DNA of 64,000 nucleotides from Candidatus Bathyarchaeota archaeon (GTDB lineage Archaea; Thermoproteota; Bathyarchaeia; Bathyarchaeales; Bathycorpusculaceae): assembly GCA_963828195.1 (NCBI GenBank), contig CAWHDT010000003.1:320001-384000 (forward strand). Direction: 5' to 3'. Numbering within the stretch: the stretch's first letter is position 1; each line of letters starts with the position of its first letter. Under the pieces are notes generated by a model, which saw only the letters and a program-made list of their open reading frames with translations, had not been told where the DNA came from and searched no databases. Below, one piece after another: positions 6,494 to 61,616 of the stretch. A program made the translations under genes and the position numbers.

Positions 6494-6533
6494 AAGAAGA
6501 AGAAAAATTGTTTTCACCAGCTTCTTCTTCTTT
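6494..6533 (+). repeat. 40-bp palindromic element, allele A, copy 1
   Basis: AAGAAGAAGAAAAATTG-TTTTCACC-AGCTTCTTCTTCTTT; matches copies at 40218 and 61514. Confidence 0.9.
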
Positions 6534-6548
6534 AAAAATTTTGCCAAG

Positions 6549-6588
6549 AAGAAGAACAACAGTTGCTCTTCAGGTGTTGTTGTTCTTT
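6549..6588 (+). repeat. 40-bp palindromic element, allele B, copy 1
   Basis: AAGAAGAACAACAGTTG-CTCTTCAG-GTGTTGTTGTTCTTT; matches copies at 61434 and 61577. Confidence 0.9.
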
Positions 6589-6697
6589 CAAAAATTAAAA
6601 TTCTACCAAAATCCAGCCACAAAAAATGGAGAATAACAAGCGAGCTCACGTTGAAATTAAAAAATTCAGCAGCGGAAAACTGTATGCTACTTTATGG

Positions 6698-7585
6698 CTA
6701 AAGAAGCGGCAGAATAACCAGACCCATGATTAATCCGCCCGCTAACCCCAGCATGATTGGGAAAGGCAAACCTGGAAAGATCCCTTTCTTTTCAAGTATG
6801 AAAAAAGTTATGATTGAACCCGCCATGATGCCCACGATTGAAACTAAGCATGGAAGTATTCCTAAGGGATAGCTGACTGAGTTGATGTAGGTGAAGAACA
6901 TGGAGCCGGTTAACATGGAGTAGAATACTAAGTCGCCGAGCCCCATCTGAATGTCTTTAAAGGAGAAGCTTAAGCCTTGAAGCTGATCCATTCCTCCTGA
7001 CGACTGAGCAATTTTTCCTACGGGACCACGATAAACCGCAAATACATCGTACACTGCCAGAAACGCTAGAATTAACACTGCACTCCACAGCGGGATTGCC
7101 CATCCGAAGAAAATGCCCAAGGCGCCGCCGATGCCTACAACAGCTACGTTGCGCGGTATGTTGCCCAGTCGGAAGATGGCGAGGTCAAACAGCACCATAA
7201 TAACAACGGACACCGCGATGAGCAAATACAGGTTTTCAAGGATTGGGAAATCGGCGAAAAGTGCATTGAGGTAAACAAGGGCTAAGAGCAGAGAAGCGGC
7301 GGACATGGCAACGACGATTAAGCCTTTGATGATATTTTTGCTTCGTCGTTTAAGCAGGAGATAAAATATGGTTGCGCTGATTGCGATGAGGACAACGAAG
7401 TATAATGCGTTGCCAAAGGGGGCTGAAGCGCTGTTGCCGCTTATAGGCGTAATAGGTGGAGCTGTTGACTGAGGCTGAGGCTTGAGCAAGTAAGCGCAGC
7501 CTAAACCGAAAACGAGGCTTGCCAGTATCGGAAGCAAATAGACAGTTTGAAACTTGAATTTGTCCAGCTTATCTTGTTCGGTCAC
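6698..7585 (-). CDS. Presenilin-family (A22) intramembrane aspartyl protease
   Basis: Multi-TM protein with AVYD, MGLGDLVFY (GxGD) and PGLP (PAL-like) motifs. Confidence 0.92.
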   Translation of the reverse strand: MTEQDKLDKFKFQTVYLLPILASLVFGLGCAYLLKPQPQSTAPPITPISGNSASAPFGNALYFVVLIAISATIFYLLLKRRSKNIIKGLIVVAMSAASLLLALVYLNALFADFPILENLYLLIAVSVVIMVLFDLAIFRLGNIPRNVAVVGIGGALGIFFGWAIPLWSAVLILAFLAVYDVFAVYRGPVGKIAQSSGGMDQLQGLSFSFKDIQMGLGDLVFYSMLTGSMFFTYINSVSYPLGILPCLVSIVGIMAGSIITFFILEKKGIFPGLPFPIMLGLAGGLIMGLVILPLL

Positions 7586-7590
7586 GTTGC

Positions 7591-8142
7591 TTACCCTAAA
7601 TTGCTAATAGCTAATGCCGCTTGCAAATAACACTGGTCACACAATAAGCTTTGCTTTTTATCCGTATCAAAAATAGAGTTGGAAAAATGCATAACGCATA
7701 AACTTCGAGGGCAATGCTGCAGACCCAACGTGTGACCTAATTCGTGAATTGACTCCTTTAAGACTCGCGATGCAAAAACGGTTGAGCCAGCGTTTTCTCC
7801 ATAAAACTGGGACTTAAGCCGCCACAGTGAAATCAAAGCGGCTCGTCCAGGAGTGTATGCTTCACCAAACACATAGTTCAACTCGGGCACAAAAATGTCA
7901 ACATCAACAACGCCCAAAACCCTGTGAAACGTCTCGTTTTTGGATCCAAAAGCTTTTACCTCATTAAGAATCACGCTTGAATTGTATTGGTTGCGTTTTT
8001 TATCAAAAGCCAACTTGGAAACAGGCAGGGCTTTCTTAATAATCGTGCAGGCTACGTCAGGAAAAGTTTTCACTAAACCCTGCTCAATCCCGGTTAGCAC
8101 ATCAGGGGATACTTCGCCAATAGCCAAAATACCTATCTTCAT
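7591..8142 (-). CDS. amzA: Archaemetzincin Zn metalloprotease
   Basis: HELGHTLGLQHCPRSLCVMHFS...C-x2-C signature. Confidence 0.93.
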   Translation of the reverse strand: MKIGILAIGEVSPDVLTGIEQGLVKTFPDVACTIIKKALPVSKLAFDKKRNQYNSSVILNEVKAFGSKNETFHRVLGVVDVDIFVPELNYVFGEAYTPGRAALISLWRLKSQFYGENAGSTVFASRVLKESIHELGHTLGLQHCPRSLCVMHFSNSIFDTDKKQSLLCDQCYLQAALAISNLG

Positions 8143-8151
8143 AATAACAGC

Positions 8152-9417
8152 CTATATCTCGTAGGTTTCTCCAGTCCTCGGCGCCACAGCATCCAACCCT
8201 AACTCGGCCTTCGCCCAATTCGCCAAAAGCTCGCAGTTGCCTTCGGCGCCGTGGACACAGAAAACTTTGGGTTTGCCGCCAAGCCGACGCAGCCCCTCTT
8301 TGAGCTGACTAGCGCCGCAGTGGGAGGAGAAATCAAAATGGCGGTACTGTGCCTTAACCTTGCTTACTTTTCCATCTATCGTGGTGACACCCTTGTCCAT
8401 CAGTTGTTTTCCAGGTGTTCCAGGAATCTGGTAACTGACCAGAAAAATAGAATTCGTTGCTTTCTTTGCTATTTTGGAGAGATAAAACTGTGATGGACCA
8501 CCTTTCAGCATGCCTGCAGGCGAGATAACTAGCCCCGGGTCCTTCGCGGCTCTTCGCCGATCACGCCATCCATCAACCCAATCCAGCGAGTGTATTGCAT
8601 TCACAAAAAGCCTTGGATCCCTAAGGAACTCTTTGTGATCCATGATTATTCGGCTAGCTTCCCGAGCCATCCCATCTAAAACAACAGGAAACTCAAAGTG
8701 ATTTGCTGCTAAAACGCAGGCGATTTCCTGAGCGCGCCCCACACCGAACGCGGGCACCAGAACTGTTCCGCCTCGCTCAACCACTTCAGTCGCCGCCTCA
8801 ACAAAATTCTTCTCAAGCTCAGGGCGCGGGGTATGATCCTCACTTGCATAGGTGCTTTCGGTGACAACGGCATCTAAATCTCCATAATCCATCGTTGCGC
8901 CTTTAAGCAGTTTGCTGTCTTCCATATTGTAGTCGCCAGTGAAAAGAATCTTCTTTCCGTCCGCTTCAACAAGCACCTGGGCGCTACCGGGCGTATGACC
9001 TGCATCAAACAGTTTAATCTTCATGTCGCCGATGGTTTCTTCAACCCCAAAATCCAAATGCCTGTTGTTATGCATCATGGCGTCAAGCTCAAGATATTCA
9101 AAAGGCAAATAGTAACCGGACAAATGAATAAAATCCTGAATAAGAACCTGCGTTAACTCTAAATTAAGCCTATTCGTGTACAGCGGCTTCTTATCGTTAA
9201 TATAAAACATCGGCACAGCGCCCGAGTGGTCAAGATGGCTGTGAGTTAAAACCACTGCGTTAACTTCTTTTGGCGGAACATGCATTGGGAAACCCGGTTC
9301 ATGATCAAGCATGACGCCGTAATCTAACACAACTTTACTTTTCTCTGACTTAACAGTTATACCGATTCTGCCAACTTCTCTTGCGCCGCCCAAAAATCCA
9401 ACTTGCAAGCAAACCAA
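8152..9417 (-). CDS. MBL-fold beta-CASP ribonuclease (aCPSF2-like)
   Basis: LGGAREVG, THSHLDH, AGHTPGS, TESTY, AFGVGRAQE, FSSH; no N-terminal KH domains. Confidence 0.92.
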   Translation of the reverse strand: MVCLQVGFLGGAREVGRIGITVKSEKSKVVLDYGVMLDHEPGFPMHVPPKEVNAVVLTHSHLDHSGAVPMFYINDKKPLYTNRLNLELTQVLIQDFIHLSGYYLPFEYLELDAMMHNNRHLDFGVEETIGDMKIKLFDAGHTPGSAQVLVEADGKKILFTGDYNMEDSKLLKGATMDYGDLDAVVTESTYASEDHTPRPELEKNFVEAATEVVERGGTVLVPAFGVGRAQEIACVLAANHFEFPVVLDGMAREASRIIMDHKEFLRDPRLFVNAIHSLDWVDGWRDRRRAAKDPGLVISPAGMLKGGPSQFYLSKIAKKATNSIFLVSYQIPGTPGKQLMDKGVTTIDGKVSKVKAQYRHFDFSSHCGASQLKEGLRRLGGKPKVFCVHGAEGNCELLANWAKAELGLDAVAPRTGETYEI

Positions 9418-9463
9418 TCCTTGTCGTAAATTCGTTTAATGTTTAAAAAGGAACTGTGCTGTT

Positions 9464-10069
9464 TTAAATATGTATTGACCCTCTTGATGCCTGAGCTGAT
9501 ACGGAACCCTTCTTGATTGCCTTCAAAACGGCGTCAACATCAAACGAAGCCTCAATTTTTGTGCAGACACTGAACAGCTCTGACAGTTGATGCGCGTCGC
9601 TGCCCGCTGTTCCAGGCAAACCCATACTCTTAGCAAGCTCCTTCGCCTCGCTGTTCGCCGCAGCCGTGGACCCGCCATTTAAAACTTCAATAGCGTCAAC
9701 TTTGTAGTTTCTCGCTGAATCGCCCATGCCGTACTGGCGAAAAGGATGCGCCACAATCGAAACCGCACCGATGCTTTTGGCGTAGTCAACCACAGCTTCA
9801 GGTGTCCATGGTCTAGGCGGCAACTCCTCGGTGCCCAAAACCAGCATATCCCCATTTTGAGTGCTGATTTCAACGCCGGGAATAATTAAGATGTCAGGAT
9901 AAGCCGAAGCCAACTCAACTGTAGCTCGGCAGCCTCTTACGCTGTCGTGGTCTGTTACGGCTGCAACCTTAATGAAGCTGTGAGCTGCAAGCTGGTCAAC
10001 CAAAGTTTTGGGTTGAATCAGAGAATCACTGGAATAAACTGTGTGAATATGCAAATCAGCTTGAATCAA
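9464..10069 (-). CDS. PHP-domain metal-dependent phosphoesterase
   Basis: DLHIHT, TDHD, GVEIS, AHPF and GSDAH motifs. Confidence 0.92.
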   Translation of the reverse strand: MIQADLHIHTVYSSDSLIQPKTLVDQLAAHSFIKVAAVTDHDSVRGCRATVELASAYPDILIIPGVEISTQNGDMLVLGTEELPPRPWTPEAVVDYAKSIGAVSIVAHPFRQYGMGDSARNYKVDAIEVLNGGSTAAANSEAKELAKSMGLPGTAGSDAHQLSELFSVCTKIEASFDVDAVLKAIKKGSVSAQASRGSIHI

Positions 10070-11697: not shown

Positions 11698-11839
11698 CGC
11701 TGAAGCCTAAACAAGAATCACAGGTCAATTATAAAAAACACTAGCCTGCAAAATCGCTTAACGGCAACGACGGATTGATGCTGCACCTTTAATTCGGCAA
11801 CCTTATATCGTATTGATTTGTCTAATAGCGACAACGGAG

Positions 11840-12601
11840 ATGCCACTCATGGTTTGCTCAATAGACATAAGTGAAAGACCCCAACTGAACAATCCGATTC
11901 TAATTGAAGGGTTGCCTGGAATAGGATTTGTAGCAAACATTGCAGCACTACATTTAATTCGGGAGCTGAAAGCTAAACGGTTCGTCCAGATTTTTTCCTC
12001 CTCATTTCAAGATTTTGCGGTAACAACCGAAGAGGGCGGCGCACTTTCACCTATAAATGAGCTCTATTACGTGAAGCGGGAAGACAGCGGACGAGACTTA
12101 ATTATCTGGTATGGAAACACGCAGGCACTGACCACCGTTGGGCAATACGAGCTTGTCGGCAAAGTGCTCGATTTAGCTCAGGAGTTTGGCTGCCGATTTG
12201 TAATATCCGTCGGAGGATTCAAGAAAGATGAGGTGCAGCCGATACCCGCGATTTACAGTACAGCCACGGATTTGGATACGATGCAGGAAGCGCTTGATTT
12301 AGGCACTAAAGTGATGGTTGGGCACGTCTTCGGCATCGCCGGCTTATCCGTTGGTTTAGCAGGGATTAAAGACATGAAGGGTTTCTCTTTGTTGGTTGAT
12401 ACGCCGGGAATGGACCCCGACGTGAACGCTGCAAAGTACGCTTTGACTACGCTTGGTAAATACCTGAAGCTTAACGTTGACTTATTCAAGCTTGAAGAAA
12501 GCGGCTGCGAAATAAAGAAAGTTTTAGAGTCCTTTGGTATTGTCAGAACGATTACAGAAGAAAAGAAGAAAGAGGAAGAGCAACTGCGCTGGTTTATTTA
12601 G
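11840..12601 (+). CDS. PAC2-family proteasome assembly chaperone-like protein
   Basis: LIEGLPGIGFVANIA N-terminal motif; ISVGGF; DPDVNAA. Start placed at ATG 11840 (11849 also possible). Confidence 0.88.
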   Translation: MPLMVCSIDISERPQLNNPILIEGLPGIGFVANIAALHLIRELKAKRFVQIFSSSFQDFAVTTEEGGALSPINELYYVKREDSGRDLIIWYGNTQALTTVGQYELVGKVLDLAQEFGCRFVISVGGFKKDEVQPIPAIYSTATDLDTMQEALDLGTKVMVGHVFGIAGLSVGLAGIKDMKGFSLLVDTPGMDPDVNAAKYALTTLGKYLKLNVDLFKLEESGCEIKKVLESFGIVRTITEEKKKEEEQLRWFI

Positions 12602-16021: not shown

Positions 16022-16022
16022 T

Positions 16023-27426: not shown

Positions 27427-30400
27427 ATGGACAATAAGGGACAGTTCACTATTATTGCGGCTTTACTTGTGGCGATAGTTCTTGCGGGTACATTGATAGC
27501 GGTGTATGCGACAATCCGCTATGATTCAAGTCAAAGTCAAACGCCTCAGACACTAACATCGACCGATGAAACAAACTCAGCAATCCTGAAAGCCTTAGGC
27601 TTTACCGTAGGCTATTACGGCTCAATTCTTCAGGTAACAGGCAATCAAACGTATGCTCTTGGTCAATCGAAGACTTACATGGAAAGCGCTTTGCAATACA
27701 TAGAAAACATGAACCCATCATTGGGCGAATCGATAAACATGACAAGCCTCAACCTTGGCACAACTTGGTTTTCAAACCCAAGCATCAGCACAGGTACGCT
27801 TTCAGTTGTTTATAACTTAGCTGACCTCGGCATCTACGGCGTAAATTACACGACTTCTTGCAGTTTAGGCGTTCAAATATTTAATTCACCAAACAGCAAT
27901 CAAGTATGCCTAAATGTGACCCAGGACTTAAATGAACCTTTAACCAGTTTAGGGCAACAGAACTTTGATTTCTACTTTTACAATTACACAGCTAGCGATT
28001 GGCAGCTAATAAATTCAAATTCAAATCCAACGATTTTCACTAATGGCACATATTTAATCAACATTCCTTCAGAGGTAACATCTTCTTCATTTATGGTTCA
28101 AGTGACTGATTCACGGGGAATAATGGTTGAGGCATCTTCATTCAACAGTTACAACATAAACTTCGGGTTTTCTTCTCAAAGCTCCTCAGCACCCACCTTA
28201 GTTGAGTTATTGCAGAACGGCACTATGCTGTGGTCTGGGCAAGACCTATTAAATACAACTCAAGCCCAACCAATCCCGCCGGTTCCAGTAATGGCCCTTA
28301 ATTTATGTCAAAACGGCGCGACTTCAGATATTCCATTTCAAGTGGAAGATTGGGCATCAGGATATATGATTCCGTTAGGTCTAAGTAGCAATTATACTAT
28401 CTTTAGCAGCGACCAAATGCTCGTTTTTGAAGTAAGTCCCTCAATGTCACAATTGACGTTATGGTGGAACGGAAGTGACACAGCAGTGCAGTCCTCTGCA
28501 GCCTATGTAGACACTTGTTTCACTGTTGGCAGCTCAACAATTCCCTCCCTTTCAAATGGAAACATGACGCTACAATTCAGCTATCCAGAAGACAGTGCAG
28601 GAGACAGCATCTTTCAGGTAACATCGAATGTAAACGGTGTGACTAGCACCACAAATTTCATGCGCATCAACAGGGACAATAGCACGTATGGATCGGGTTC
28701 GCCTGCCTTCATAATAGAATATGGCGTAGTTAGAGATATTGTTCAGGAAGAAGGCGAATGGGGCAACGAGGGGCCTACTAACTGCTCGGATGTTTACTCG
28801 CAAATCGCGCTTACATTTCCAGCGAATGCAACATACTTTACATATCAGCTTAGACTAATTTTCGTAAACGCTTCTACGGCGCCTACGGCCAGCAATATCA
28901 GCGATATCAGTCTAATTCGGCTGACGACTTCAGCAACTCAGCCCCAACAAGCTATAACTGAGAATGGAATTACAAACGGGATTCTAAATGTCACACTCGG
29001 CCCCGGAATCTTTAACGACAGCACAGGGAATAGCCATGATTGGAGTGAACTAATTAATAGCGCATCGCAAGGAGCGGGGATAATGTTCACAGATAGCGAG
29101 AATCAACAGCTCTATGCTTTTGATAATCTGGCTAATAATGAGCCTACAGGGGCAATTAACATAACTGGTTCTATTATTGAACTTGATCCTGTTACTTGTT
29201 TCGCTCCAGTTTTAAATTTCAATTCAGCTTTGGACTTAACTTGGTACGGGGACGTGGCTACTTTTAACGGCGTAAACCCCATTTATAACAGCAGCGGAAA
29301 CTCTGGTATCTGGCCTCTTGTGGCGCAACCGCCCTCGGTGACCATTAATCCGCAATCTGCAGCTTCGACGTCGATAACCATTTCTCCTTCGATTGGTTCA
29401 GGAAATAACAATGTTGTAGTATCAGGCGGCGGATTCATACCTGACTCTCAGATAACAATTACGGTCAACGGGAACACAACTACCACGATAAAGGCAACTG
29501 CTTACGGCGAAATTCCGTTAGGAACCACCGTTTTCATTTCAGCTACTGCGCCGGGGGGCTACACAATCGCTGCTACTGACACAAGTTCTGATTCAGCTTC
29601 AGCAAACTACATAATACCGCCAGTTGAAACCATTAATTTCCAAGTCAGCGGAATCGGCAGTGACGCAGGTTCCTCGACAATTCTAACAATCGATTCAGTG
29701 AATTATACGTACTCCACTCTTCCAGCCCAGTTCAGCTGGCCAGCAGAATCGACGCATACTATAACTGCGTCCGGAGTCGTTGCTGCAGGAGCTGGCAAGC
29801 AATACGTATGGGCATCATGGATTGATGGCGGAGCCCAAACACACACCTACATTGTTCCCAGCGCTAACACTACTGTTACAGCCAGCTTTGGGACTCAGTG
29901 GCAGGTTACCTTTAGCTCGCCTGGTTTAGATGCTTCAACGGCTTCAGGGACAGTTTTGACGGTTAACGGCACTAACGTTGCATATTCAGGTTTGCCATAC
30001 AATGTTTGGGTGAATAACGATGACGGGCTAGTTTACACTTACAATGCCTCTGTTTCAAGCACGACGGCAGGCAAACAATTTATTTTGGGGAGTGTGAGTC
30101 CCGTTTCTCCTTTAGTTGGAATCACTAGTGCGCTGGCAGTTACGGGCAGCTACACAACACAATACCAATTAACCCTGACTAGCAACTTTGGTACAACGAT
30201 CCCTGCTGGAGGAAGCACTTGGTACAATGCCGGCTCCACCGTAACAATTTCAGCAACTGCACCAAATGCAGGGGCTGGTGAGCAGTACAGCTGGAACGGT
30301 TGGGCGGGAACGGGCTCAGGAAGCTACACGGGCACAAATAATCCCGCCGCAAACGCAGTCACCATGAATGCAGCCGTTACTGAAGCTGCCTCGTGGATTC

Positions 30401-32154
30401 ATCAGTACCAAGTTACCGTGACAGCTAGCCCCAGCGGAGCAATCGGTGGAACATTTTTGGTTACCTATACAATGAGTGGAACCACACATACAAACGAGCA
30501 ACATACTACGCCTTGGACTCAATGGATAGATGCTTCTAAAACGGTTACTTTAAGCAGTCCTCAAAGTTCCTTCAGCGGCTACACATTCGGCAGTTACACA
30601 AGTAACCCAGTTACGGTTAACTCGGCTCAAACAATAAGCTTGATGTATTATGGACCTTTAGATCACTTCGCCTTTAACACTATCACCACTCCTCAAACTG
30701 CCGGTACAACTTTCAGCATAACGATTACAGCTATGGACGCCTATGGCAACGTCGTTGCGAATTATGCTGGATCCAACTCTTTGAGTGTTTCAACAGGAAC
30801 TATTAACCCAACTACCACTGGCACCTTTTCGAGTGGTGTTTGGACTGGTTCCGTTACGGTGACTGGAGCAGGTTCAGGAGTCACGATCTCAACGTCTGGT
30901 TCCAGCAAGTCAGGAACAAGCGGCAGCTTCACAGTCAATCCTGGAGCTCTTGACCACTTCGCATTCACAAGCATCAGCAGTCCCCAAACCGCCGGCACAG
31001 CAATCACAGGCATCACAATTACAGCAATGGACGCAAATAACAACATCGTCACAAGCTACGCAAGCTCAACAAGCATAACTGAAACTAACGGCGGTTCAGG
31101 AGGAACTGTTAGCCCCGCCTCGGTGACCTTCAGCGGCGGTCAGTGGTCTGGCTCTTTAACGTTAACTGCATCCGGTACGGGCGCAACAATAACTGCTTCA
31201 GGTGGCGGCAAAACTGGAACAAGCAGCTCTTTCACGGTTAACTCTGGTCCACTTGACCACTTTATCTTCAACACCATAGCTAGCCCCCAGACGGTCAATT
31301 CAGCCTTCAGCATAACCATAAAGGCGGTTGACGTAAACTTAAACACAGTCACAAGCTACACAAGCACCAACACTCTATCTGCCTCCGTTGGAACCATTAG
31401 CCCGGCCACTACGACGGCTTTCGCAGCGGGCGTCTGGACAGGTTCAGTAACTCTTAACACCGTAGGCAGCAGCGTTTCCATAAGCACATCTGACGGCACC
31501 CAAACTGGAACAAGCAACACTTTCACAGTAAGCACTGCACCGCCGGCATTAGATGGCGAGGCATCAACAAACACTATAAGTAGTGGTATTATGACAATAA
31601 GTCTCAAAACCACCAAAGCTAATGATGTGTTATACCTCTCGTTCGTTGGAGGCGGCAGCACAGACATAAACTACATCAATTCCACTGGCACTTCAGCGTG
31701 GACTCAAAGAGGATACGTACAAACTGAAGACTCAACCCATCACTTATCCACATGGTATGCGACATGGACCTCAAGCGGAACAATAACAATCACAATCACC
31801 CTGAAAGGAACCAACACTCATTGTGCGGCAGTTGTATTTGGAATTAACGGAGCCAACATGACTGCCCCGTTTGATGGCAATGCAACAACAAATTACGGCA
31901 ACTCTGCAACAGCCAGCGTCGGCATAACTACGACCCACTCAAATGACCTTATCATCGGGTCTTTAGGAATTGGTATAACAACAGCACCTACAAACGGGAG
32001 CGGTTACACTTCCATCGCAACTGAATCTGTGTCCAGCAGCCGTGAAACATCAGATGAATATTGTATAGCATCAGCAACAGGAACGTACACTCCAACCTAC
32101 ACCTTCAGCTCAAATCCCTGGGGTATAATTGCAGATGCAATAAAATCCTCGTAA
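27427..32154 (+). CDS. Giant pilin-adhesin (1575 aa) with class III signal peptide and Ig-like repeats
   Basis: MDNKG|QFTIIAALLVAIVL; tandem Ig-like modules; very Ser/Thr/Asn-rich. Confidence 0.88.
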   Translation: MDNKGQFTIIAALLVAIVLAGTLIAVYATIRYDSSQSQTPQTLTSTDETNSAILKALGFTVGYYGSILQVTGNQTYALGQSKTYMESALQYIENMNPSLGESINMTSLNLGTTWFSNPSISTGTLSVVYNLADLGIYGVNYTTSCSLGVQIFNSPNSNQVCLNVTQDLNEPLTSLGQQNFDFYFYNYTASDWQLINSNSNPTIFTNGTYLINIPSEVTSSSFMVQVTDSRGIMVEASSFNSYNINFGFSSQSSSAPTLVELLQNGTMLWSGQDLLNTTQAQPIPPVPVMALNLCQNGATSDIPFQVEDWASGYMIPLGLSSNYTIFSSDQMLVFEVSPSMSQLTLWWNGSDTAVQSSAAYVDTCFTVGSSTIPSLSNGNMTLQFSYPEDSAGDSIFQVTSNVNGVTSTTNFMRINRDNSTYGSGSPAFIIEYGVVRDIVQEEGEWGNEGPTNCSDVYSQIALTFPANATYFTYQLRLIFVNASTAPTASNISDISLIRLTTSATQPQQAITENGITNGILNVTLGPGIFNDSTGNSHDWSELINSASQGAGIMFTDSENQQLYAFDNLANNEPTGAINITGSIIELDPVTCFAPVLNFNSALDLTWYGDVATFNGVNPIYNSSGNSGIWPLVAQPPSVTINPQSAASTSITISPSIGSGNNNVVVSGGGFIPDSQITITVNGNTTTTIKATAYGEIPLGTTVFISATAPGGYTIAATDTSSDSASANYIIPPVETINFQVSGIGSDAGSSTILTIDSVNYTYSTLPAQFSWPAESTHTITASGVVAAGAGKQYVWASWIDGGAQTHTYIVPSANTTVTASFGTQWQVTFSSPGLDASTASGTVLTVNGTNVAYSGLPYNVWVNNDDGLVYTYNASVSSTTAGKQFILGSVSPVSPLVGITSALAVTGSYTTQYQLTLTSNFGTTIPAGGSTWYNAGSTVTISATAPNAGAGEQYSWNGWAGTGSGSYTGTNNPAANAVTMNAAVTEAASWIHQYQVTVTASPSGAIGGTFLVTYTMSGTTHTNEQHTTPWTQWIDASKTVTLSSPQSSFSGYTFGSYTSNPVTVNSAQTISLMYYGPLDHFAFNTITTPQTAGTTFSITITAMDAYGNVVANYAGSNSLSVSTGTINPTTTGTFSSGVWTGSVTVTGAGSGVTISTSGSSKSGTSGSFTVNPGALDHFAFTSISSPQTAGTAITGITITAMDANNNIVTSYASSTSITETNGGSGGTVSPASVTFSGGQWSGSLTLTASGTGATITASGGGKTGTSSSFTVNSGPLDHFIFNTIASPQTVNSAFSITIKAVDVNLNTVTSYTSTNTLSASVGTISPATTTAFAAGVWTGSVTLNTVGSSVSISTSDGTQTGTSNTFTVSTAPPALDGEASTNTISSGIMTISLKTTKANDVLYLSFVGGGSTDINYINSTGTSAWTQRGYVQTEDSTHHLSTWYATWTSSGTITITITLKGTNTHCAAVVFGINGANMTAPFDGNATTNYGNSATASVGITTTHSNDLIIGSLGIGITTAPTNGSGYTSIATESVSSSRETSDEYCIASATGTYTPTYTFSSNPWGIIADAIKSS
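30652..31536 (+). repeat. Three tandem ~97-101 aa Ig-like repeats within the adhesin
   Basis: Units start at 30652, 30943 and 31246: G[PA]LDHF.F..I..PQT....ITI.A.D...N.V..Y.....G.W.GS.T....GTS..FTV. Confidence 0.9.
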
Positions 32155-40044: not shown

Positions 40045-40217
40045 TCCCGCAGCTTCCCCAACTCTTTGTCTCTCTTCACAGCTTCCACTTGGTTCACTAT
40101 TTGAACCCGATGAGTCTGCGTGAAAACCTGCGATAAGCCCAACAAATAAGCATCTTGGCTTAAATGCTCTGTTACCACGATCGGTTTGTTATATTACTGC
40201 TTAGATGATTTTGGAAG

Positions 40218-40257
40218 AAGAAGAAGAAAAATTGTTTTTCTAGGCTTCTTCTTCTTT
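40218..40257 (+). repeat. 40-bp palindromic element, allele A, copy 2
   Basis: AAGAAGAAGAAAAATTG-TTTTTCTA-GGCTTCTTCTTCTTT. Confidence 0.9.
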
Positions 40258-40689
40258 TGGAAAAAAATTATGCCGCAGAATTTTCGCGCAGTCTCAATAA
40301 CGCACTAAACAGAATTCAACATAGACGCAAGGCCCCGCACCTTCAACATAGAAACGTCTTTTTGCTTGAGAAATACGCTGTTTTTCGATTGTTTTTTGAA
40401 GGAAAAAAAAATTGCAAATATTGAAAAGGGAAAATGACTTGAAGGACTTTTCAGATGAATTAAGATGCCTTAAGAGTATTTTTCTGTTCTTTGGTCTAAT
40501 TGAATATCAATACAACATATCTAACAACTTTGGAATGTGAAGACTTTTCCGCCATTGGACATTTTTGGCTGGTTAGTTTTTATTCGTTTGAATTCCGAAT
40601 CTATGTTTTCGTGTTTTACACCGTTCTTATTTATAACTTGGCAGATTAATAGTTGGAGGTTAATATTTTCATAACCTTCGGAAGGCACG

Positions 40690-51713: not shown

Positions 51714-53600
51714 ATGAGTCAATTTACCCGCCCCTTAGAATCTGCAACGAGAAAAGAGATAGACTTAGTTCTAAATAGCCTCGGATGGATTACTGACGAA
51801 ACAAAACCAACTTGCAACGTTTTTACTGAAAGAGCAAAAACACTAAATCAAAATGCTAGCTTCAAGGGGAATAATCCTGACTATGTTCTTTATAAATCAG
51901 GCACAGAAGACGACCCAATAGCAATTATTGAAGCGAAAAGGAAAGGTCAAAGTTTAGAAAAGGCTTTAGAACAAGCGATAGAAAAATATGCAAAACCGCT
52001 TGGTGTTTCCTTAGTTTTTGTTTACGATGCCACTTTTATAAGAACATTTGATTTAAGAAGTAAAAAGGAACTTACAATAGATGGAAATAGCTTAAAGCAG
52101 TTAGTTTCCGAAGCAAAACTGCTTCGTTTTCTGAAAACAGGTTCAAATATTGACGAAACTGCCCCTGAAGTAAAACACACTAGAGAAGAATTAATACGAA
52201 TTTTTAAATGGGTGGAAGAACTTCTAAGGCAAGAAGGTTTAAGAAACCTTGACAGGTTTGTTGAGTTTTCTAACTTATTATTCATAAAAATCATAAGCGA
52301 AATCGAAGACGACCGAGAAAAGAAAGGATTGCCTAGACGGTTAGCTAAAGACATATGTTGGGATAGCTTCTGTGATGAAAAAGACCCCAAAAAAATGCTC
52401 AACTACATTAACGATACTGTATTGAAGCAAGGTCTAGCTAAAGAGTATAATCATACTGACGATATTTTCCAAGAGAAATTAAAAATCCAAAATCCCCAAA
52501 CAGTTAAAGAAATAGTAAATAAACTATCCACCTTAACCCTACTCAACACTGAATCAGAGATTAAGGGTGATGCATTTGAGTATTTCCTAAAAAGCATAGC
52601 ATCTGGAAACGATTTAGGCGAATACTTCACCCCACGACATATCGTAAAGCTAATTGTGTCTTTGGTTAACCCAAAGTACGGAAACACCGTTTTAGACCCA
52701 TTTTGTGGAACAGGTGGATTTTTAATCGAAGCGTTTAGGCACCTAAAATCAAACGTAGACGAAAAAGACGAAAACATAGTGAAAGCACTAAAAGAAAAAA
52801 CCATTTTTGGGATTGAACTAACAGACACTTACAAAATAGCAAAAATGAATATGATAATCACTGGTGATGGGCACAACAACATAGTACAAGATGACGCTGC
52901 TAAAAACATTTTTTGGGACAAAATTATCGGTAGTTATAAAGAAAAAGACATAATCGAGGCTTTACAGGTCATAAAAGCTAAGGGGTTCGATGTAGTTTTC
53001 TCAAATATTCCCTATGGGCAACCAACAATTTTCGGAAATACTTATCCCATCCCATCAAATCAGGGCGATAGTGTCTTCATTCAATTCATAATTAAAATGT
53101 TAGGAAAAGATGGGCGATGCGGAGTGATAGTTCCAGAAGGATTACTATTCAGGTCGGAACACAAGAGTTTAAGAGAATATTTGATGCAAGAATGCGACTT
53201 AGAAGCTATCATTTCGTTGCCAAGCGGAGTGTTTTATCCCTATGCAGGTGTAAAAACAGACATTCTAATCTTTAAAAAGGGTAACTCAACTGAAAAAGTT
53301 TGGTTTTACAACGTAGAAAATGATGGATTTGAGCTATCTGCTAAAAGGAAAAAAATTCCAAAAGATGATTTGCCCGATGTTTTAGCCAAATTTCCATTGA
53401 GAGAAAACTCCGCTAAAAGTTTTAGTGTCCTGAAAAAAACTATAGAAAATAACGAGTTTAGACTCAATTTAACAAGTTACATTGAGAATAAAACAGGGGA
53501 ATTGACTTTCAAGTCTCCAATGCAAGTACTTGACGAAATCAATAAAATAGAACTAGAAATCAATAAAGAACTTGAAGTCTTAAACAAGATGATGCAATGA
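51714..53600 (+). CDS. Fused restriction endonuclease / N6-adenine methyltransferase (HsdR_N + HsdM-like)
   Basis: N-terminal PDYVLY...IIEAKR nuclease motif; GEYFTPRHIV, DPFCGTGGF, SNIPY (motif IV variant), IVPEG. Confidence 0.92.
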   Translation: MSQFTRPLESATRKEIDLVLNSLGWITDETKPTCNVFTERAKTLNQNASFKGNNPDYVLYKSGTEDDPIAIIEAKRKGQSLEKALEQAIEKYAKPLGVSLVFVYDATFIRTFDLRSKKELTIDGNSLKQLVSEAKLLRFLKTGSNIDETAPEVKHTREELIRIFKWVEELLRQEGLRNLDRFVEFSNLLFIKIISEIEDDREKKGLPRRLAKDICWDSFCDEKDPKKMLNYINDTVLKQGLAKEYNHTDDIFQEKLKIQNPQTVKEIVNKLSTLTLLNTESEIKGDAFEYFLKSIASGNDLGEYFTPRHIVKLIVSLVNPKYGNTVLDPFCGTGGFLIEAFRHLKSNVDEKDENIVKALKEKTIFGIELTDTYKIAKMNMIITGDGHNNIVQDDAAKNIFWDKIIGSYKEKDIIEALQVIKAKGFDVVFSNIPYGQPTIFGNTYPIPSNQGDSVFIQFIIKMLGKDGRCGVIVPEGLLFRSEHKSLREYLMQECDLEAIISLPSGVFYPYAGVKTDILIFKKGNSTEKVWFYNVENDGFELSAKRKKIPKDDLPDVLAKFPLRENSAKSFSVLKKTIENNEFRLNLTSYIENKTGELTFKSPMQVLDEINKIELEINKELEVLNKMMQ

Positions 53601-54772
53601 CTGACTTTGTAGGAATCATTGACGTATGCGAAATTAATCCATCAAAAAAAATAGCAAAACTAAACACAAACGAGCAAGTTAGTTTTGTAGAAATGTCCTC
53701 AGTCTCCGAAGATGGCAAAATAATCAACGAGCAAACGTGTCTCTTGAAAAATGTAGCGAAAGGTTTTACATATTTTGTCAAAGGCGACATAATCTTAGCC
53801 AAAATAACCCCTTGTTTTGAAAATGGAAAGAGAGCATATGTCAATAACATAAAGAACACAATTGGGTTTGGAAGCACTGAATTTCTCGTTTTACGACCTA
53901 ACGAAAAGATTGTACCTGAATACCTATATTATATGGTTAGCAGAAAAAAGTTTAGAGAAGATTTAACGCCTCTATTGGTTGGAACCGCAGGTCAAAAAAG
54001 GTTACATAAAGACGTTTTAGCAAATTATCTAATTCCTCTTCCATCTAAGCAGAAACAATTTGATATAGTCAACAAGCTAAAACAGATTGAAAAAATAAAG
54101 AAGTTAAGGATTACACAAAATGAGGCTTTTGACGAATTGATAAAAAGTAAGTTTTTGGCTTTGTTTGGAAACCCCTCGCAAAGTGATTTTTCACTTGTGG
54201 AGCTTCGTACCGTTGCTAAGTTGAATATGGGTGGAACACCATCAACCCAAAAACCTGAGTATTATGTTAATGGTGACATTAATTGGATGAAGTCGGGAGA
54301 CATTAAGTCCGATTTTGTCAAGATTATTCCGAACAAAATAACTAAGTTAGGATTAAAAAATTCCAATGCTAAAATGTATTCTATCGGTGACGTGGTTATC
54401 GCTTTAAACGGACAGGGTAAAACCAGAGCGACAACTGGAATTTTGAAGATAGAAACTGCAAGCAATCAGTCAGTAGCTTCAATATCTCCAAATTTGGATG
54501 TATTGCTTCCCGATTATTTGCATTTTGATTTGAAATATAGGTATCAAGAACTACGAAATTTAACGGGTGATAAGCAAAGAAGTGGTCTCAATTTGAATAT
54601 ATTGAGACAATTGGAAATTCCCTTGCCTCCACGGGAATTACAAAGTCAATTTGGCGATTTTGTAAGACAAGTGGAAATTATGAGAGAAAAACAAAATTCT
54701 TCTAAGATTGAAGCTGAACAACTATTTGAATCCGTTTTGAATGAACTATATGTTCCCAACGTTTCAAATTGA
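53597..54772 (+). CDS. hsdS: Type I-like specificity subunit with two TRDs
   Basis: AKITPCFENGK...GSTEF...GTAGQKR...IPLPS..Q; second TRD GGTPS...IPLPP.ELQ..F; ATGA overlap with the upstream gene. Confidence 0.92.
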   Translation: MTDFVGIIDVCEINPSKKIAKLNTNEQVSFVEMSSVSEDGKIINEQTCLLKNVAKGFTYFVKGDIILAKITPCFENGKRAYVNNIKNTIGFGSTEFLVLRPNEKIVPEYLYYMVSRKKFREDLTPLLVGTAGQKRLHKDVLANYLIPLPSKQKQFDIVNKLKQIEKIKKLRITQNEAFDELIKSKFLALFGNPSQSDFSLVELRTVAKLNMGGTPSTQKPEYYVNGDINWMKSGDIKSDFVKIIPNKITKLGLKNSNAKMYSIGDVVIALNGQGKTRATTGILKIETASNQSVASISPNLDVLLPDYLHFDLKYRYQELRNLTGDKQRSGLNLNILRQLEIPLPPRELQSQFGDFVRQVEIMREKQNSSKIEAEQLFESVLNELYVPNVSN

Positions 54773-54942: not shown

Positions 54943-55007
54943 AAAGCCATAAATAAACCTCCAATGTGTATAAATTAAGAATTAACCGATAAAGATACAA
55001 TTAACAC

Positions 55008-57338: not shown

Positions 57339-57367
57339 AACGATGCAAAAGAGCAGGGAAGCCACGA

Positions 57368-58228
57368 TTGTTTCCAAAGGTTCCAGACCAGCATAAAGTT
57401 GGACACCCCTTAATTCCAAACGGTCTAGGCGTAATCTACGTCCTATTCACAACCGTTTACCTTTTTCTCCTCTACTTTCTAAAAATAGCTGGAAACCCAT
57501 CGAATGTTTCAGCGCCATTTACCCTGGCTGTATGCGTTCTTTTCGGCGGCTTCATGGGACTGCTTGACGACTGGATAGATTTGAAGTGGCGTTACAAAGC
57601 GTTCATGCCCTTAATCGCCGCGTTACCCCTCATATACTACGCCCAAGAGACTGGTGCAAGAACAACTTTGCTGCTGCCATACATTGCAACGCTCCATCTT
57701 GGCTCCATCTATTTTTACATCATTATTCCAGTGATTGTCATGATAGTTACCAACGCTGTGAACATGCTCGGCGGGTTGAACGGTTTAGAAACAATATGCC
57801 CAGCCATAGTTATCTTGGGGTTAATGGCTGTTTCGCCGTCATACATTTTAATGGTTGGCCCCATTTTATTTTGGCTAGTTTTAGCTTACTTCAACTTTAA
57901 CGGCAAAGTTTTCGTGGGAAATTCAGGCTCCTTCGCCATAGGGATGACGATAGCGTCGTTCGCTGTGATTTCAGACTTAAAATTAAGCTTGCTTGTTATG
58001 CTTCTGCCGTACATTTTCAATTCTGCATTAATACTTTTGATGGTTTACTTTACACGCAAAAAAGCCAGTGTTTCGTTTGACGGAGAAAAGCTTTCGTCGG
58101 ACCATAGAAGAAGTCTAATTACGTTGATAACTTACCATCGACCTTTAACTGAGAAGCAAGTGGTTAGAATAATAGCTTTAACAGTTGCACTATTCACGCT
58201 ATTTGGCGTAATTATTCAGCTAATATAA
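57368..58228 (+). CDS. MraY/GPT-family polyprenyl-phosphate sugar-1-phosphate transferase (AglH-like)
   Basis: GLLDDW, NAVNMLGGLNGLE, VFVGNSGS; downstream of aglB. Confidence 0.88.
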   Translation: MFPKVPDQHKVGHPLIPNGLGVIYVLFTTVYLFLLYFLKIAGNPSNVSAPFTLAVCVLFGGFMGLLDDWIDLKWRYKAFMPLIAALPLIYYAQETGARTTLLLPYIATLHLGSIYFYIIIPVIVMIVTNAVNMLGGLNGLETICPAIVILGLMAVSPSYILMVGPILFWLVLAYFNFNGKVFVGNSGSFAIGMTIASFAVISDLKLSLLVMLLPYIFNSALILLMVYFTRKKASVSFDGEKLSSDHRRSLITLITYHRPLTEKQVVRIIALTVALFTLFGVIIQLI

Positions 58229-60952
58229 TTAGGCGAGGAACCGTTCAAGTTTAGTTAAGCCGATGATTTCGTCAAAGCTCAAGCCTAAAGCATCCAAAAC
58301 CTGGTCAAAAGTAGAGTGCAAATAAGCAACGTACTTGTCAACATCCACCTCGTTTCTTGATGTCAACTCGACGGGTTTCACATGCGGCTCACGAATAACT
58401 TTAACAAAACTGATTAAATCGCCCGTATGCAGCTCTTTTCCATTTTCCTGCAGAATCCGCGCAGCTTTCACATGCTGAGGTGTAGTTTTAGTGTAACTTG
58501 AAAGTTCATCGCCTAAAGCTACATGAAAAGCCAGTTCGCTAATGTCACCCCACTCTCTGCGTTTTAGCCGCGTGTACCTTTCACGGATTATTTCAGCGAT
58601 TTCTTTTCTTGCCTTCTCGAAGTCGGATGGATTTTTAACTCTTGCAAGGGATTCTTTCATTTTGTTAAAAGCATCTTTGATAAAGACTGGAATGTGTTTT
58701 TTCTTGCCCGTTAAACCCTTCACATCCACAGTTCCGTCTTCCAAAACACCGAGATAATTCTTTTTGCGTGAACTAAATACGGCGTACCTGTAAACTTTGT
58801 CTACGTCGATACCCATGTTCAATTCGTGTTCCGTGTAGTGGACTAATTCTTCAATTTGCTCTTTAGAAGGGTTTTTCAAAAATAAGCTGTCTGTGTCGCC
58901 GTAAAGAACCTGTATGCCCACTGACTCGGCGTGCGTGAGTATTTGTGTAATAGAGTACCTGCCGATGGCTGCCGTTGCTTCAGCTACAGGAGGGCAATAT
59001 AGGTCGAAGCTGTCAGCGCCAAAGACTCCGTAGCTGGCATTTAAAATAACTTTAAGCGCTCCCTGCGTGGTGTTGTACCAGCTTCTAAGCTCAGGCGGCA
59101 AGGTTTTGTCTTTTGCGCGCTGCTTATACCATTTAACCCTTAGATCCCGCAGTGAACCAATCAATAAGCTTTCCAGCGCTCGTTTCTCGCTGCATACCCA
59201 ATGTTGAGTGTCAGGTATCATGCGGCGTCTGCATTCGCTATGTTGGCAATCAATTGACTGGTAACCCAGGTTCCAAACTTTAATTATTGAGGGGTACAGA
59301 CTGGGAAAATCCATAACTGAAACGTTAAAGTGAACGCCAGGCGTGGGTTCAACAACTATGGCGCCTTTATATTTTTTTCCTTTTATTGTAGCTGTCGACG
59401 AAGTTTTTCCTTTCTTTGTCAAAATGTCCTCTGCGTTGGGGATCAGCATGTTTTTTCTTCGGTGCTCGCGGTGCATAAAGTTGCGTATCCAACGGCTTAC
59501 GCCTTGTCGGCTTACGTCTTCCATGGGCATGCTGGCAATTCGTGCAAGGACAAGAATCAACTTCATTGCGGAGTCGTTGTCAAAACTGGTTAGTTTGTAG
59601 GTGATTTCTGAGTCTCGGAGGCAATAAGCTGCGAGTTCAGAATATGTTAAGTCGCCGAAGGTTTTTTCGAGGTGAATTTTTTCAACGCCGATTAATGCGT
59701 TGCCAACATCTTCTAAACTTACGTCTTTATAGCGGCCGCCGTAGGCGTAGATTTGGACGGATCTGTTGAAGAAGAACTTGTAGAGATCAATGTGTATGCC
59801 ATACTTCAGCAAACAAACCCGTTTGCCTACCTCTATGGGAACCTCGCTTCTTCTAAATCCCAAGTTCATTGCTCGATGGGTTAAATAGCGGAGGTCGAAG
59901 TCGTCGCCGTTGAAAGTTAAAATAAACGGATATTCAAGCAGCACATCAAAGGTTTTCTTAAGCAGCTCCTCCTCGGTTTCGCAGAACTCTACCGTAATAT
60001 CTGCTGCTAAGTGATGATTTCCTTCCCGTACGCCTTCGCGTCTGAGAACAAGCACTTTTTTTTCGCCGTCTGAACTGTAAATTGACACGGCGATCACGGG
60101 GCAGGCGCCTTCCCGTGCATCTGGCATTCTTGTGGATAACGGCGAGTAAACTTCTATGTCGATGGCTGCTCTGCGAAATTTTGGGGCAGGGTACTCGAGG
60201 AGTTTTGCCCACATCTCTGCGTATTCACGTTCTTCAGCCGTGCAGTCTGTAAAGAGACGCTTTATCTGGTTCAGGTTCTCGGTAGCTTCCTCAAGAACTT
60301 TAGGCACCAAGTCGCCGTTTTTAACCTCATAAATCATGCCTGGCAAAAGCTGGCGGTCATAAATGTATGATTGATAATACTTTATTTTTGACTCCCAAAC
60401 TTTAGTGTCGCTGTCCTCGATTCTGCATCCGCAAACACGGGGGTAATCTTCAGGAATTATGTCTCTAATCGTGCCCGCTGGTCTCCCACCGATGGCTAAC
60501 GGGTCTTTTGTCACTATTTTGATCAGATTTACATCTTTGTTTTCCAAGGGGTCAAACTTTTTCTGCTCTTCAAAAGCGAAGAAGCCATCATGTCCCGTTA
60601 TGCGGTCGAATTTTTCCAGTTTCTCCCGAGTCAAGTTGGTTAAACAGTAGGGTTTATGGTTCGTATTGTCATACCAAAAATAGATTTGCTCTGATTCGGG
60701 CTCGTAGAGTTTGATAACTGCTTTTTTCTGGCGGCCATCGTAGGATGCTGAAACAAAATAGGATGCAGGCAGGTTTTGGGGAGCCACTGGCGGAAAGGCA
60801 AGGGGTCTTTTCTTTTTTGGTCGTTTAGCTTCTTCTGGTTTCATTTCTTCGTTGTTTATGAGTGGCTGGGGCGTGGCTTTCGCTTTTGCTTCTTCTTTTG
60901 GCAGGGGTTTAGTTTGTTCGCTGCCACAGTAATCTAAGAGTGTTCGCGCCAT
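58229..60952 (-). CDS. polB1: Family B DNA polymerase (PolB1 type)
   Basis: DIEVY, FNGDDFD, YCLRD, DFPSLYPSI, KVILNASYG, YGDTDS, KKNY; PolB1-like N-terminus (HKPYC, DPLAIG). Start uncertain (60952 or 60985). Confidence 0.95.
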   Translation of the reverse strand: MARTLLDYCGSEQTKPLPKEEAKAKATPQPLINNEEMKPEEAKRPKKKRPLAFPPVAPQNLPASYFVSASYDGRQKKAVIKLYEPESEQIYFWYDNTNHKPYCLTNLTREKLEKFDRITGHDGFFAFEEQKKFDPLENKDVNLIKIVTKDPLAIGGRPAGTIRDIIPEDYPRVCGCRIEDSDTKVWESKIKYYQSYIYDRQLLPGMIYEVKNGDLVPKVLEEATENLNQIKRLFTDCTAEEREYAEMWAKLLEYPAPKFRRAAIDIEVYSPLSTRMPDAREGACPVIAVSIYSSDGEKKVLVLRREGVREGNHHLAADITVEFCETEEELLKKTFDVLLEYPFILTFNGDDFDLRYLTHRAMNLGFRRSEVPIEVGKRVCLLKYGIHIDLYKFFFNRSVQIYAYGGRYKDVSLEDVGNALIGVEKIHLEKTFGDLTYSELAAYCLRDSEITYKLTSFDNDSAMKLILVLARIASMPMEDVSRQGVSRWIRNFMHREHRRKNMLIPNAEDILTKKGKTSSTATIKGKKYKGAIVVEPTPGVHFNVSVMDFPSLYPSIIKVWNLGYQSIDCQHSECRRRMIPDTQHWVCSEKRALESLLIGSLRDLRVKWYKQRAKDKTLPPELRSWYNTTQGALKVILNASYGVFGADSFDLYCPPVAEATAAIGRYSITQILTHAESVGIQVLYGDTDSLFLKNPSKEQIEELVHYTEHELNMGIDVDKVYRYAVFSSRKKNYLGVLEDGTVDVKGLTGKKKHIPVFIKDAFNKMKESLARVKNPSDFEKARKEIAEIIRERYTRLKRREWGDISELAFHVALGDELSSYTKTTPQHVKAARILQENGKELHTGDLISFVKVIREPHVKPVELTSRNEVDVDKYVAYLHSTFDQVLDALGLSFDEIIGLTKLERFLA

Positions 60953-61112
60953 CCCCAATGATACCTTAGCCTCCATATGGTACATTGAGACTAAAATCTT
61001 TGCTTACTAAAAACCGGCAATCTGCCTTAAGATTAAAGTGATCAAAATAACATGCGAAAAGCAGAAGAAACCTGAAATCGGTTTAATTTTGAGACAAATT
61101 TCACGAAGCGGC

Positions 61113-61247
61113 TTAGAACAATTCATGCAGCACATTGAGGTGGCTATCGACTTCTTTTTTGGAATTGAAGATTTGACCACACTCAGAACACATATATTGC
61201 CCCGCTTTGGTTTGTGAGTTGCTTTTACGTTTGATCACTTGACTCAT
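61113..61247 (-). CDS. Stand-alone C2H2 zinc-finger microprotein (44 aa, below the ORF-track cutoff)
   Basis: MSQVIKRKSNSQTKAGQYMCSECGQIFNSKKEVDSHLNVLHELF*: Y-x-C-x2-C-x3-F-x5-V-x2-H-x4-H. Confidence 0.8.
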   Translation of the reverse strand: MSQVIKRKSNSQTKAGQYMCSECGQIFNSKKEVDSHLNVLHELF

Positions 61248-61433
61248 TGTTTACTTCTCTTGCTTAAAGAAGACGAAAGTGGCATAAACTGATTTGTGCA
61301 AGCAATTTTGCTACACACTTATTGATTAGAAAAGGAGGTGTGTGTGTTTCTGTAGGAGTTGGTTTTGGGTTGCTTTTTTGGTTTAGAGCTTGGATCTTCG
61401 TGCTGGGTGGCTCTGAATAAGGTTTTGTTTTTG

Positions 61434-61473
61434 AAAGAACAACAACACCCGAAAAACAACTGTTGTTCTTCTA
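61434..61473 (-). repeat. 40-bp palindromic element, allele B, copy 2
   Basis: Reverse complement TAGAAGAACAACAGTTG-TTTTTCGG-GTGTTGTTGTTCTTT. Confidence 0.9.
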
Positions 61474-61513
61474 TTGATCCAGATTTAAGGCAGCCATCTA
61501 AAAAATAAAATTA

Positions 61514-61553
61514 AAAGAAGAAGAAGCTTCAAAAAACAATTTTTCTTCTTCTT
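61514..61553 (-). repeat. 40-bp palindromic element, allele A, copy 3
   Basis: Reverse complement AAGAAGAAGAAAAATTG-TTTTTTGA-AGCTTCTTCTTCTTT. Confidence 0.9.
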
Positions 61554-61576
61554 CTTCTTCCATGCGCACTTTTTCA

Positions 61577-61616
61577 AAAGAACAACAACACTTGGGAAAC
61601 AACTGTTGTTCTTCTT
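61577..61616 (-). repeat. 40-bp palindromic element, allele B, copy 3
   Basis: Reverse complement AAGAAGAACAACAGTTG-TTTCCCAA-GTGTTGTTGTTCTTT. Confidence 0.9.

Follow-up and report, generated by a model that had tools for sequence, protein, structure and literature searches.

We describe here a family of 40-bp dyads, dispersed between the genes of a Bathyarchaeial chromosome, which we think rather likely to be captured pac-like signals of several viruses that would start the headful packaging of host DNA. The family was noticed as six copies in a stretch of 64,000 nucleotides from a Candidatus Bathyarchaeota archaeon (hereafter the window, G000:C3:320001–384000; the source genome, G000, spans 2.83 Mb and is 96% complete). 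(Note that Gnnn denotes related genomes, Cn a contig, and Lnnn a locus, and that U, A, B, and D are the modules of the repeat.) In proviruses of this genus, every module has homologous DNA either inside a gene resembling terS, the gene for the small terminase, or immediately upstream of one, and alignments place all modules in the same orientation relative to their terS. The stems of the dyads are conserved, the modules have been stacked stepwise, and the genes beside the stacks turn over on one side; we infer that the dyad and U are recognition (pac) signals for the small terminase protein, TerS.

The dyads and their counterparts in terS-like genes

A scan of both strands of the source genome, allowing up to six mismatches, returned 121 non-overlapping matches; removal of one weak hit (C5:888399) left 120 dyad copies, 60 of type A and 60 of type B, in 69 intergenic loci. 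At four mismatches or fewer the two strands held 55 A and 58 B copies, and the reversed genome 1 and 0. An earlier note on the window had described the repeats as palindromes with a fixed arm–8-nt core–arm geometry, confined to intergenic DNA and co-oriented within clusters. All six of its 40-mers are present at the positions and on the strands given in Table 1, and the properties it described extend to the whole genome: of the matches to a regular expression, 57 of 64 for A and 48 of 49 for B have a constant inner length; no hybrids (A-left/B-right or B-left/A-right) were found; none of the 120 copies falls within a gene, by the gene calls made in this analysis; and the units share one orientation in each of the 48 loci that contain more than one. 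These multi-copy loci hold two or three units each (AB in 42, BA in 3, and BAB in 3), the usual arrangement being A followed by B at a distance of 51–61 bp. Between copies, the stems are 97–98% alike and the loops 67%. The core, which had been taken as variable, does vary but is not free; it is T/pyrimidine-rich and then purine, and it is similar to the viral loop. Pairing improves when the register is moved by 3 nt (11 bp perfect in A, and 12 of 13 in B), and the consensus begins AAGA or GAGA.

Rather than two co-varying alleles, as the earlier note had proposed, A and B align as two types of one dyad that lies within terS-like genes of Bathyarchaeial proviruses, the products of which carry a Myb-type helix-turn-helix (HTH). 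(The loci of this gene in relatives come mostly from Candidatus Bathyarchaeia.) In viral contigs, a B-like pattern recovered 20 stretches, many of them close kin, 18 of which lie within a gene of ~150 amino acids abutting terL (the neighbor was identified as terL by phrog_2, E 4e-37); the A-type pattern had no matches in these contigs. Host copies align with viral terS past the stem, at 82–87% over about 50–60 nt, and several other B copies do so at 82–85% over 54–60 nt that include the flank (E 3e-10 to 1e-8). In 115 of the 120 copies the match to terS is in a single orientation. Each of four proviral regions of 40–60 kb contained one dyad, inside terS, and of a 35-kb provirus the only DNA found amplified is that of the terS locus. 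In G066, the host repeats are similar to the dyad of that genome's own provirus. Among the 120 congeneric genomes surveyed, the Myb-HTH family is present in 77, and loose matches to the dyad, which is nearly restricted to one taxonomic family, range from 0 to more than 90, with 0–5 in many; the median is 13 in genomes with the Myb-type gene and 2.5 in those without it (a comparison in which hits to terS and matches to the dyad depend on each other). An intact terS with the dyad is absent from the source genome, whose sites would thus act in trans for viruses that enter the cell.

Within the viral gene the dyad is kept as a stem. From 85 dereplicated intact genes we took the 74 with terL downstream; a perfect stem of at least 8 bp occurs in the linker of 56 of these, compared with 2 and 2 in equal windows upstream and downstream, and the mean linker stem is 9.6 bp versus 5.7 bp after synonymous recoding. 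The stem is retained while the encoded residues change among EEE/SSS, QQQ/CCC, VVV/TTT, and DDD/SSS. Because the stem outlasts these switches, the constraint must act on the nucleic acid.

The product of the Myb-HTH gene, encoded directly before terL, is probably a small terminase. Its predicted structure comprises an N-terminal domain with a three-helix HTH, a disordered linker that corresponds to the position of the dyad, and a C-terminal domain formed by a helical hairpin. The model of the N-domain resembles the DNA-binding domains of GcrA/Myb proteins (Z 7.2 over 49 residues and Z 6.4 over 51); the best Foldseek match of the protein in the PDB, a weak one, is the G20C small terminase (E 0.062), and a library of viral structures gave no named match. 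The nearest solved relative of the adjacent TerL is T4 gp17, over the ATPase part only (E 5e-9). We compared dyad type with recognition-helix residues in 104 proteins dereplicated at 85%, with 15 of other or no type left out. Proteins of the CAA type carry E40, R43, and Q44 in 39, 40, and 40 of 40 cases, and among the 33 of the GAA type 26 have N40 and 25 have Y43, while the columns of the C-domain hold little dyad-type signal. Consistent with this, dyad type changes 14 times on a tree of the N-domain and 34 times on a tree of the C-domain, against about 49 when shuffled. This covariation fits a protein that would bind its own dyad as duplex DNA. Since A and B are viral terS types, the likely binder is a viral small terminase and not a host protein; the earlier note's suggestion that the dyads are bound by protein is probably correct.

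The U module, stacked sites and one-sided gene turnover

Homology traces U and D to the intergenic DNA before a second, unrelated TerS-like family, which we call the DTQR type. A profile of U has 62 matches in the source genome, 18 of them away from dyads. One match is inside a provirus on C5, just before a gene of 195 codons (E 2.4e-6) that is a deletion fusion of a DTQR-type gene of ~130 codons and the start of terL. In relatives, the 3′ half of U matches DNA 50–110 bp before the DTQR start codon (E 1.1e-8 in G031 and 1e-3 in G035). The DTQR family is present in 43 of the 120 genomes, and in 14 of 30 loci a terL match lies downstream of the gene; the family shows no alignment with the Myb type (probability 0.3) and was not found in viral contigs. 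The U core occurs at least 10 times (11–48) in 10 of the 120 genomes, compared with at most 2 occurrences for controls, and all 10 have the DTQR gene (Fisher p=5e-5 for the nine besides the source genome, a value inflated by kinship). Read in the terS sense, a full locus is U-core, B, A, U, and combines co-oriented signals from two unrelated families. As a separate observation, a 171-bp repeat (90% identical) that has a piece in common with the far half of U lies upstream of a terS–terL pair at C6:24301–24471 and beside an A locus at C5:424165–424400.

Related genomes hold what look like intermediates in the building of stacks. In G023 and G010, where decayed pieces of terS are common, dyad-centred terS fragments lie between host genes and are joined in tandem by type (EVV followed by EEE and then by QQQ in one example); one of the junctions recurs between loci and between species. 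Three to five dyad types are stacked in G104, G007, G067, G032, and two metagenome loci. U also occurs by itself: of 69 U matches in G108, G004, and G031, 60 sites were retrieved, and just one of these has a dyad nearby. With one duplicate and the proviral site excluded, the orthologue of the gene next to such a site adjoins an element in the source genome for 32 of 50 D-side genes and 6 of 31 U-side genes, against a background of 5.7%. These orthologous U-only sites indicate that the sites are older than the species compared and that A and B were inserted into U sites later. The D module beside the first dyads of the window is probably the remnant of such an older U-only site; in G004, a full U without dyads lies beside the same presenilin 3′ end.

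Among 55 loci with enough flank, a counterpart in the source genome was found only on the D side in 22 and only on the U side in 5 (p=0.0015). Within the source genome, the codon score of the nearest gene is lower on the U side (p=0.023), and paralogue-rich genes are commoner there (17% versus 4%). The U side is the terS-sense side, and packaging of the P22 type proceeds in the terS-sense direction. Small genes that we named by eye as AbrB-like, DUF433-like, and PIN-like often lie on the U side (for example at C3:194444, C5:424506, C5:867134, C7:160026, C7:277624, and C8:109821). The notion that loci are circular permutations of one headful arose from the spacing of hisS and presenilin, which are some 20–65 kb apart in many relatives; we dropped it, since breakpoints are common elsewhere too and are not specific to the elements. 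In a 309-kb region of G105, inspection by eye placed breakpoints at 4 of the 7 informative element sites and synteny at the other 3.

Layout in the window and the source genome

The 40-mers are embedded in a larger mosaic that extends from about −125 to +150 relative to A, in the order U, A, B, D. D repeats the core of U, and both cores are present in 19 of the 42 AB loci. The window contains a full locus, a locus of an A-only subfamily, and a B-A-B stack (Table 1). The upstream flank of the A-only subfamily had no match with E<0.1 in 363 related loci; these loci also gave no source, other than further host copies, for the flanks of the A-only subfamily, the long linker, or the far half of U.

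Table 1 Modules of the repeat family in the window
Feature	Position	Strand	Basis
U module	6367..6485	+	profile match, E 7.7e-16
U 3′ half	about 6435–6485, core 6452–6470	+	reverse complement of DNA 50–110 bp before DTQR-type gene
Dyad A (GAA-type)	6494..6533	+	reverse complement corresponds to EEE...SSS linker of putative Myb-HTH terS
Dyad B (CAA-type)	6549..6588	+	reverse complement corresponds to QQQ...CCS linker of putative Myb-HTH terS
D module, shorter second copy of U core	6587..6633	+	profile match, E 2e-4
Upstream flank, six-member A-only subfamily	40090..40207	+	6 matches in genome
Dyad A, solo	40218..40257	+	40-mer match
Downstream flank, A-only subfamily	40261..40316	+	–
Dyad B, third unit of B-A-B stack	61434..61473	−	40-mer match, first base mismatched
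Long A-to-B linker	61473..61512	−	common to five loci
Dyad A, middle unit of B-A-B stack	61514..61553	−	40-mer match
Dyad B, first unit of B-A-B stack	61577..61616	−	40-mer match

Convergent and divergent gaps are both used, as the earlier note had said of the window copies, but not alike: 24 of the 69 loci lie in convergent gaps, compared with 172 of 1191 long gaps (p=1e-5), and 13 of the 69 lie between divergent genes. Loci number about one in every 40 kb, or one in every 32 kb once U-only sites are included. The 21–34 kb intervals seen in the window do not reflect a fixed period, the coefficient of variation of locus spacing being 0.93 against 0.98 for the null (p=0.37); gaps of 15–60 kb are in excess (0.66 versus 0.47, p=0.002) in a size window picked post hoc. 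Locus orientation is unrelated to local GC skew, which is weak in this genome, and adjacent loci alternate in orientation beyond expectation (21 of 62 the same, p=0.015). Two stretches of C5, 479–602 kb and 602–795 kb, are without dyad loci. Inverted pairs of similar stacks 4–7 kb apart, at C5:863200 and C5:867134–867191 (near-identical) and at C3:433577 and C3:440170, are possible substrates for inversion.

Several other descriptions of the repeats were considered. Fragments of an insertion sequence or miniature inverted-repeat transposable element, against which the earlier note had asked that the copies be checked, find no counterpart here: the 23 full-length U-A-B-D loci have neither terminal inverted repeats nor target-site duplications, the longest shared word being 4.65 nt at a locus's own ends and 4.58 nt between loci, and inverted matches at their ends being only 4–6 nt. 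(Because the ends of the loci are ragged, a decayed target-site duplication is possible.) The assembled contigs of 4 runs contained neither an empty, element-less site nor any molecule ends. No Rfam hit reached the gathering score in the window, where a tRNA scan was also empty. The layout is not that of a CRISPR array, as units differ within one stack yet recur in others. A reading of A as the code for a small peptide was dropped, because the frame in which it can be read is that of terS, on the opposite strand.

Proviruses and terminase genes were also observed elsewhere in this genome and its relatives. C5:553397–577450 (L155, L156) is a head–tail provirus remnant of ~24 kb beside secY, with portal and capsid genes and no integrase seen, in which terS is fused to the start of terL by deletion; it lies within a long dyad-free stretch. 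Another provirus, in which terL is split, lies at C9:164600–181818 (L157), and C8:49619–50135 (L158) holds a DTQR-type terS and a terL fragment within a region of glycosylation genes. Pairs of terS and terL without the usual viral neighbors in the sequence available, several of them without a dyad, were seen at C6:21793–23596 (L154), at G014:C1:48576–50739 (L163, L164), and at L133, L135, L138, and L140. The source genome thus contains a head–tail cluster with a deleted terL together with a separate terS–terL pair, and the isolated pairs are possibly terminase cassettes, domesticated or mobile, that could complement head clusters in which the terminase is missing. In G074:C1:820050–824008, G091:C4:56583–60535, and G096:C1:1088946–1092903, terS and terL follow the tail genes near one end of the provirus, and the next gene encodes an ABC-type ATPase that has an acetyltransferase-like part; the type of terS varies at this slot, and in L378 and L379 it is DTQR. 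Other features of the window are an open reading frame of 1575 amino acids without a Pfam match (27427–32154), which follows genes for a type II/IV secretion ATPase and a T2SSF protein; M and S genes of a type I restriction–modification system (51714–54772); and 838 bp (3534–4373) that a contig of run X1 skips, which span an open reading frame of 179 amino acids at 3734–4273, a gene that may be absent in some strains.

Proposed packaging signals, decoys and other readings

The packaging reading would work as follows. The HTH of TerS would recognize the dyad, and an infecting or induced virus of matching type would begin headful packaging at host stacks, in the terS-sense direction. The packaged DNA would start with a stack, and so would have homology to the resident stacks of the next host; by recombining at a resident stack, incoming DNA would replace the DNA on the U side. 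Recombination at stacks would sometimes add a new piece of terS in tandem, and host stacks would also draw terminase off viral DNA. Provirus spans estimated by eye at about 34–35 kb (G074, G091) are near the density of the loci; one provirus of 46.8 kb is described in PMC11697101.

Several points weigh against this reading. The data are assembled contigs, in which no start of packaging was observed, and headful packaging by these viruses is a prediction. No viral terS carrying exactly A or B was found, the best matches being the 82–87% alignments given above, and when the loop and flanks of the host copies were shuffled 92 of 120 still kept their orientation, at much lower scores. No PHROG or Pfam family calls the Myb-type gene TerS, and its identity comes from position, architecture, and a weak fold match. 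On a tree built without helix 3 (residues 1–36) dyad type changes 27 times, and, since helix 3 is encoded 15–40 nt from the dyad, part of the covariation may be linkage. For the DTQR type, the structure model lacks an HTH and a fold search returned generic coiled coils only; a strong U match lies upstream of terS in just 2 of 29 loci of relatives, with four more at E 0.02–0.7. The bias of accessory genes toward the U side in the source genome vanishes over five genes (p=0.28), and the cross-genome p-values overstate because the genomes compared are kin.

The homologies bear equally on a reading in which the stacks are decoys for defence only, which titrate TerS or misdirect packaging and thereby cut virus yield, with any transfer of host genes incidental. 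The presence of several virus types per site and the preservation of the stems would suit such decoys, and at least two P1 pac sites added to a host chromosome are reported to lower phage productivity (cited in PMC11260489). We nevertheless consider it unlikely that defence is the whole explanation, as it predicts neither the turnover of neighboring genes on one side (22 versus 5 of 55 loci) nor the long persistence of sites beside the same core genes. Because the decoy reading has the same binding step as the packaging reading, we are considerably more confident that the sites have a TerS-directed function of one kind or the other. A rather improbable alternative is that the dyad and U are other signals of the terminase operon, such as an autoregulatory operator, an RNA hairpin, or a terminator, and that the host copies act as T-rich bidirectional terminators or insulators. 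The enrichment in convergent gaps, the T/C-rich tracts on both strands, and the modest folding of A and B as single strands (z −1.2 to −2.8) would all be expected of terminators; the loci between divergent genes would not, nor would the single dyad per provirus region or the capture, in terS-sense order, of two unrelated signals of which one is in a gene and the other upstream of one. Moreover, covariation with the DNA-recognition helix points to the binding of double-stranded DNA.

That the repeats are neutral or selfish non-autonomous elements, built out of the debris of proviruses, multiplied through gene conversion or an unrelated recombinase, and not connected with packaging at present, seems to us quite improbable. 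Their number varies widely among congeners, decayed terS pieces are common in G023 and G010, and near-identical pairs of copies exist, all of which debris could account for; the lack of target-site duplications, terminal inverted repeats, and a Y1 transposase, the far better conservation of stems than of loops, and the amplification of terS-locus DNA alone from a 35-kb provirus speak against it. Least of all do we credit the idea, raised in the earlier note, of a host site for chromosome organization, partition, SMC loading, or Xer-type recombination that viruses have borrowed. The fixed geometry, the density of about one locus per 40 kb, and the alternating orientation of neighboring loci are features that such a site might have. 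The dyad is nearly confined to one family, and its scarcity in many congeners would not be expected of a site essential for partition or SMC loading; there is no polarity with respect to skew, and spacing is not more regular than the null. In relatives, furthermore, the host copies retain terS codons on both sides, and the flow must therefore have been from virus to host. Among 138 neighboring genes no recombinase was evident by eye, and no search for ParB, SMC, or Xer families was made.

The packaging reading can be set beside known systems. Repetitive extragenic palindromes (REP) and the bacterial interspersed mosaic elements (BIME) that they form with REP-associated tyrosine transposases (RAYT) are short extragenic palindromes arranged in mosaics with set linkers, amplified in particular lineages and enriched between convergent genes; REP units alternate in inverted order and have a GTAG-type 5′ foot. 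The present repeats share the clustered extragenic mosaics, lineage-specific amplification, and convergent enrichment, and to this extent a REP/BIME-like character, which the earlier note had allowed for, is justified. Unlike REP, however, the units are co-oriented, have no GTAG-type foot, and come from viral terS; no Y1/RAYT gene accompanies them, there being no Y1 (PF01797) match in the source genome and no dyad at any of the 20 best Y1 loci of relatives.

In phage P22 (PMC11260489) and, as an archaeal precedent, halovirus phiH1 (PMC6210493), pac is inside terS. As in those viruses, a conserved DNA feature lies in the terS coding sequence once per genome; unlike theirs, the dyad here is triplet-periodic, encodes the linker between the HTH and the oligomerization domain, and switches type together with the recognition helix. 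The closest counterpart on the host side is in Salmonella, where nine single 17-nt sites like the pac of P22, most of them within ordinary genes, have been shown to function (PMC11260489). Host sites similar to an in-terS pac there lead to high-frequency packaging of host DNA in one direction, as would be the case here. In contrast to the Salmonella sites, the present ones are 70–90 extragenic loci, captured from viruses, that form stacks of several types and draw on two TerS-like families, with a role that is predicted. Gene transfer agents and lateral transduction likewise carry host DNA in viral heads; RcGTA packages without sequence specificity (PMC7947584), and lateral transduction begins at the prophage's own pac (10.1101/2024.11.15.623857), whereas here the host would provide many specific start sites for outside viruses. 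In the literature covered, which lay outside subscription journals and supplements, we found neither these repeats nor stacks of this kind described. The main texts of 10.1101/2023.08.24.554615 and PMC11697101 contain no match to "palindrom" or "transduc," and the available portion of PMC11008901 gives no precedent for a hairpin in terS.

Host pac-like sites known so far are few resemblances to the signal of one phage, and whether selection could keep them is a question raised by the authors of PMC11260489, who allow that it could. The sites described here are virus-derived, amplified dozens-fold, stacked, and orthologous across species, and so make that question testable. For a TerS family whose archaeal viruses are uncultured, the system also yields predicted pac sites and a candidate recognition-helix code (CAA, GAA, and GTN types), and it may help to account for accessory-gene turnover and local shuffling in the genomes of an abundant soil and peat archaeal genus. 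If the packaging reading is true, host genes would be spread and infection could be blunted. More tentatively, and short of considering it probable, we suggest that hosts of this genus maintain viral packaging signals as a library that is inherited and grows, in which stacks at fixed chromosomal sites, built stepwise in one orientation from the signals of several virus types, serve as transduction starts, as one-sided portals for accessory genes, and as decoys. With sites at about one per viral genome length, many viruses would then become directed transducers of the whole chromosome, and the library would amount to an acquired, sequence-specific, non-CRISPR memory of viruses that serves gene flow.

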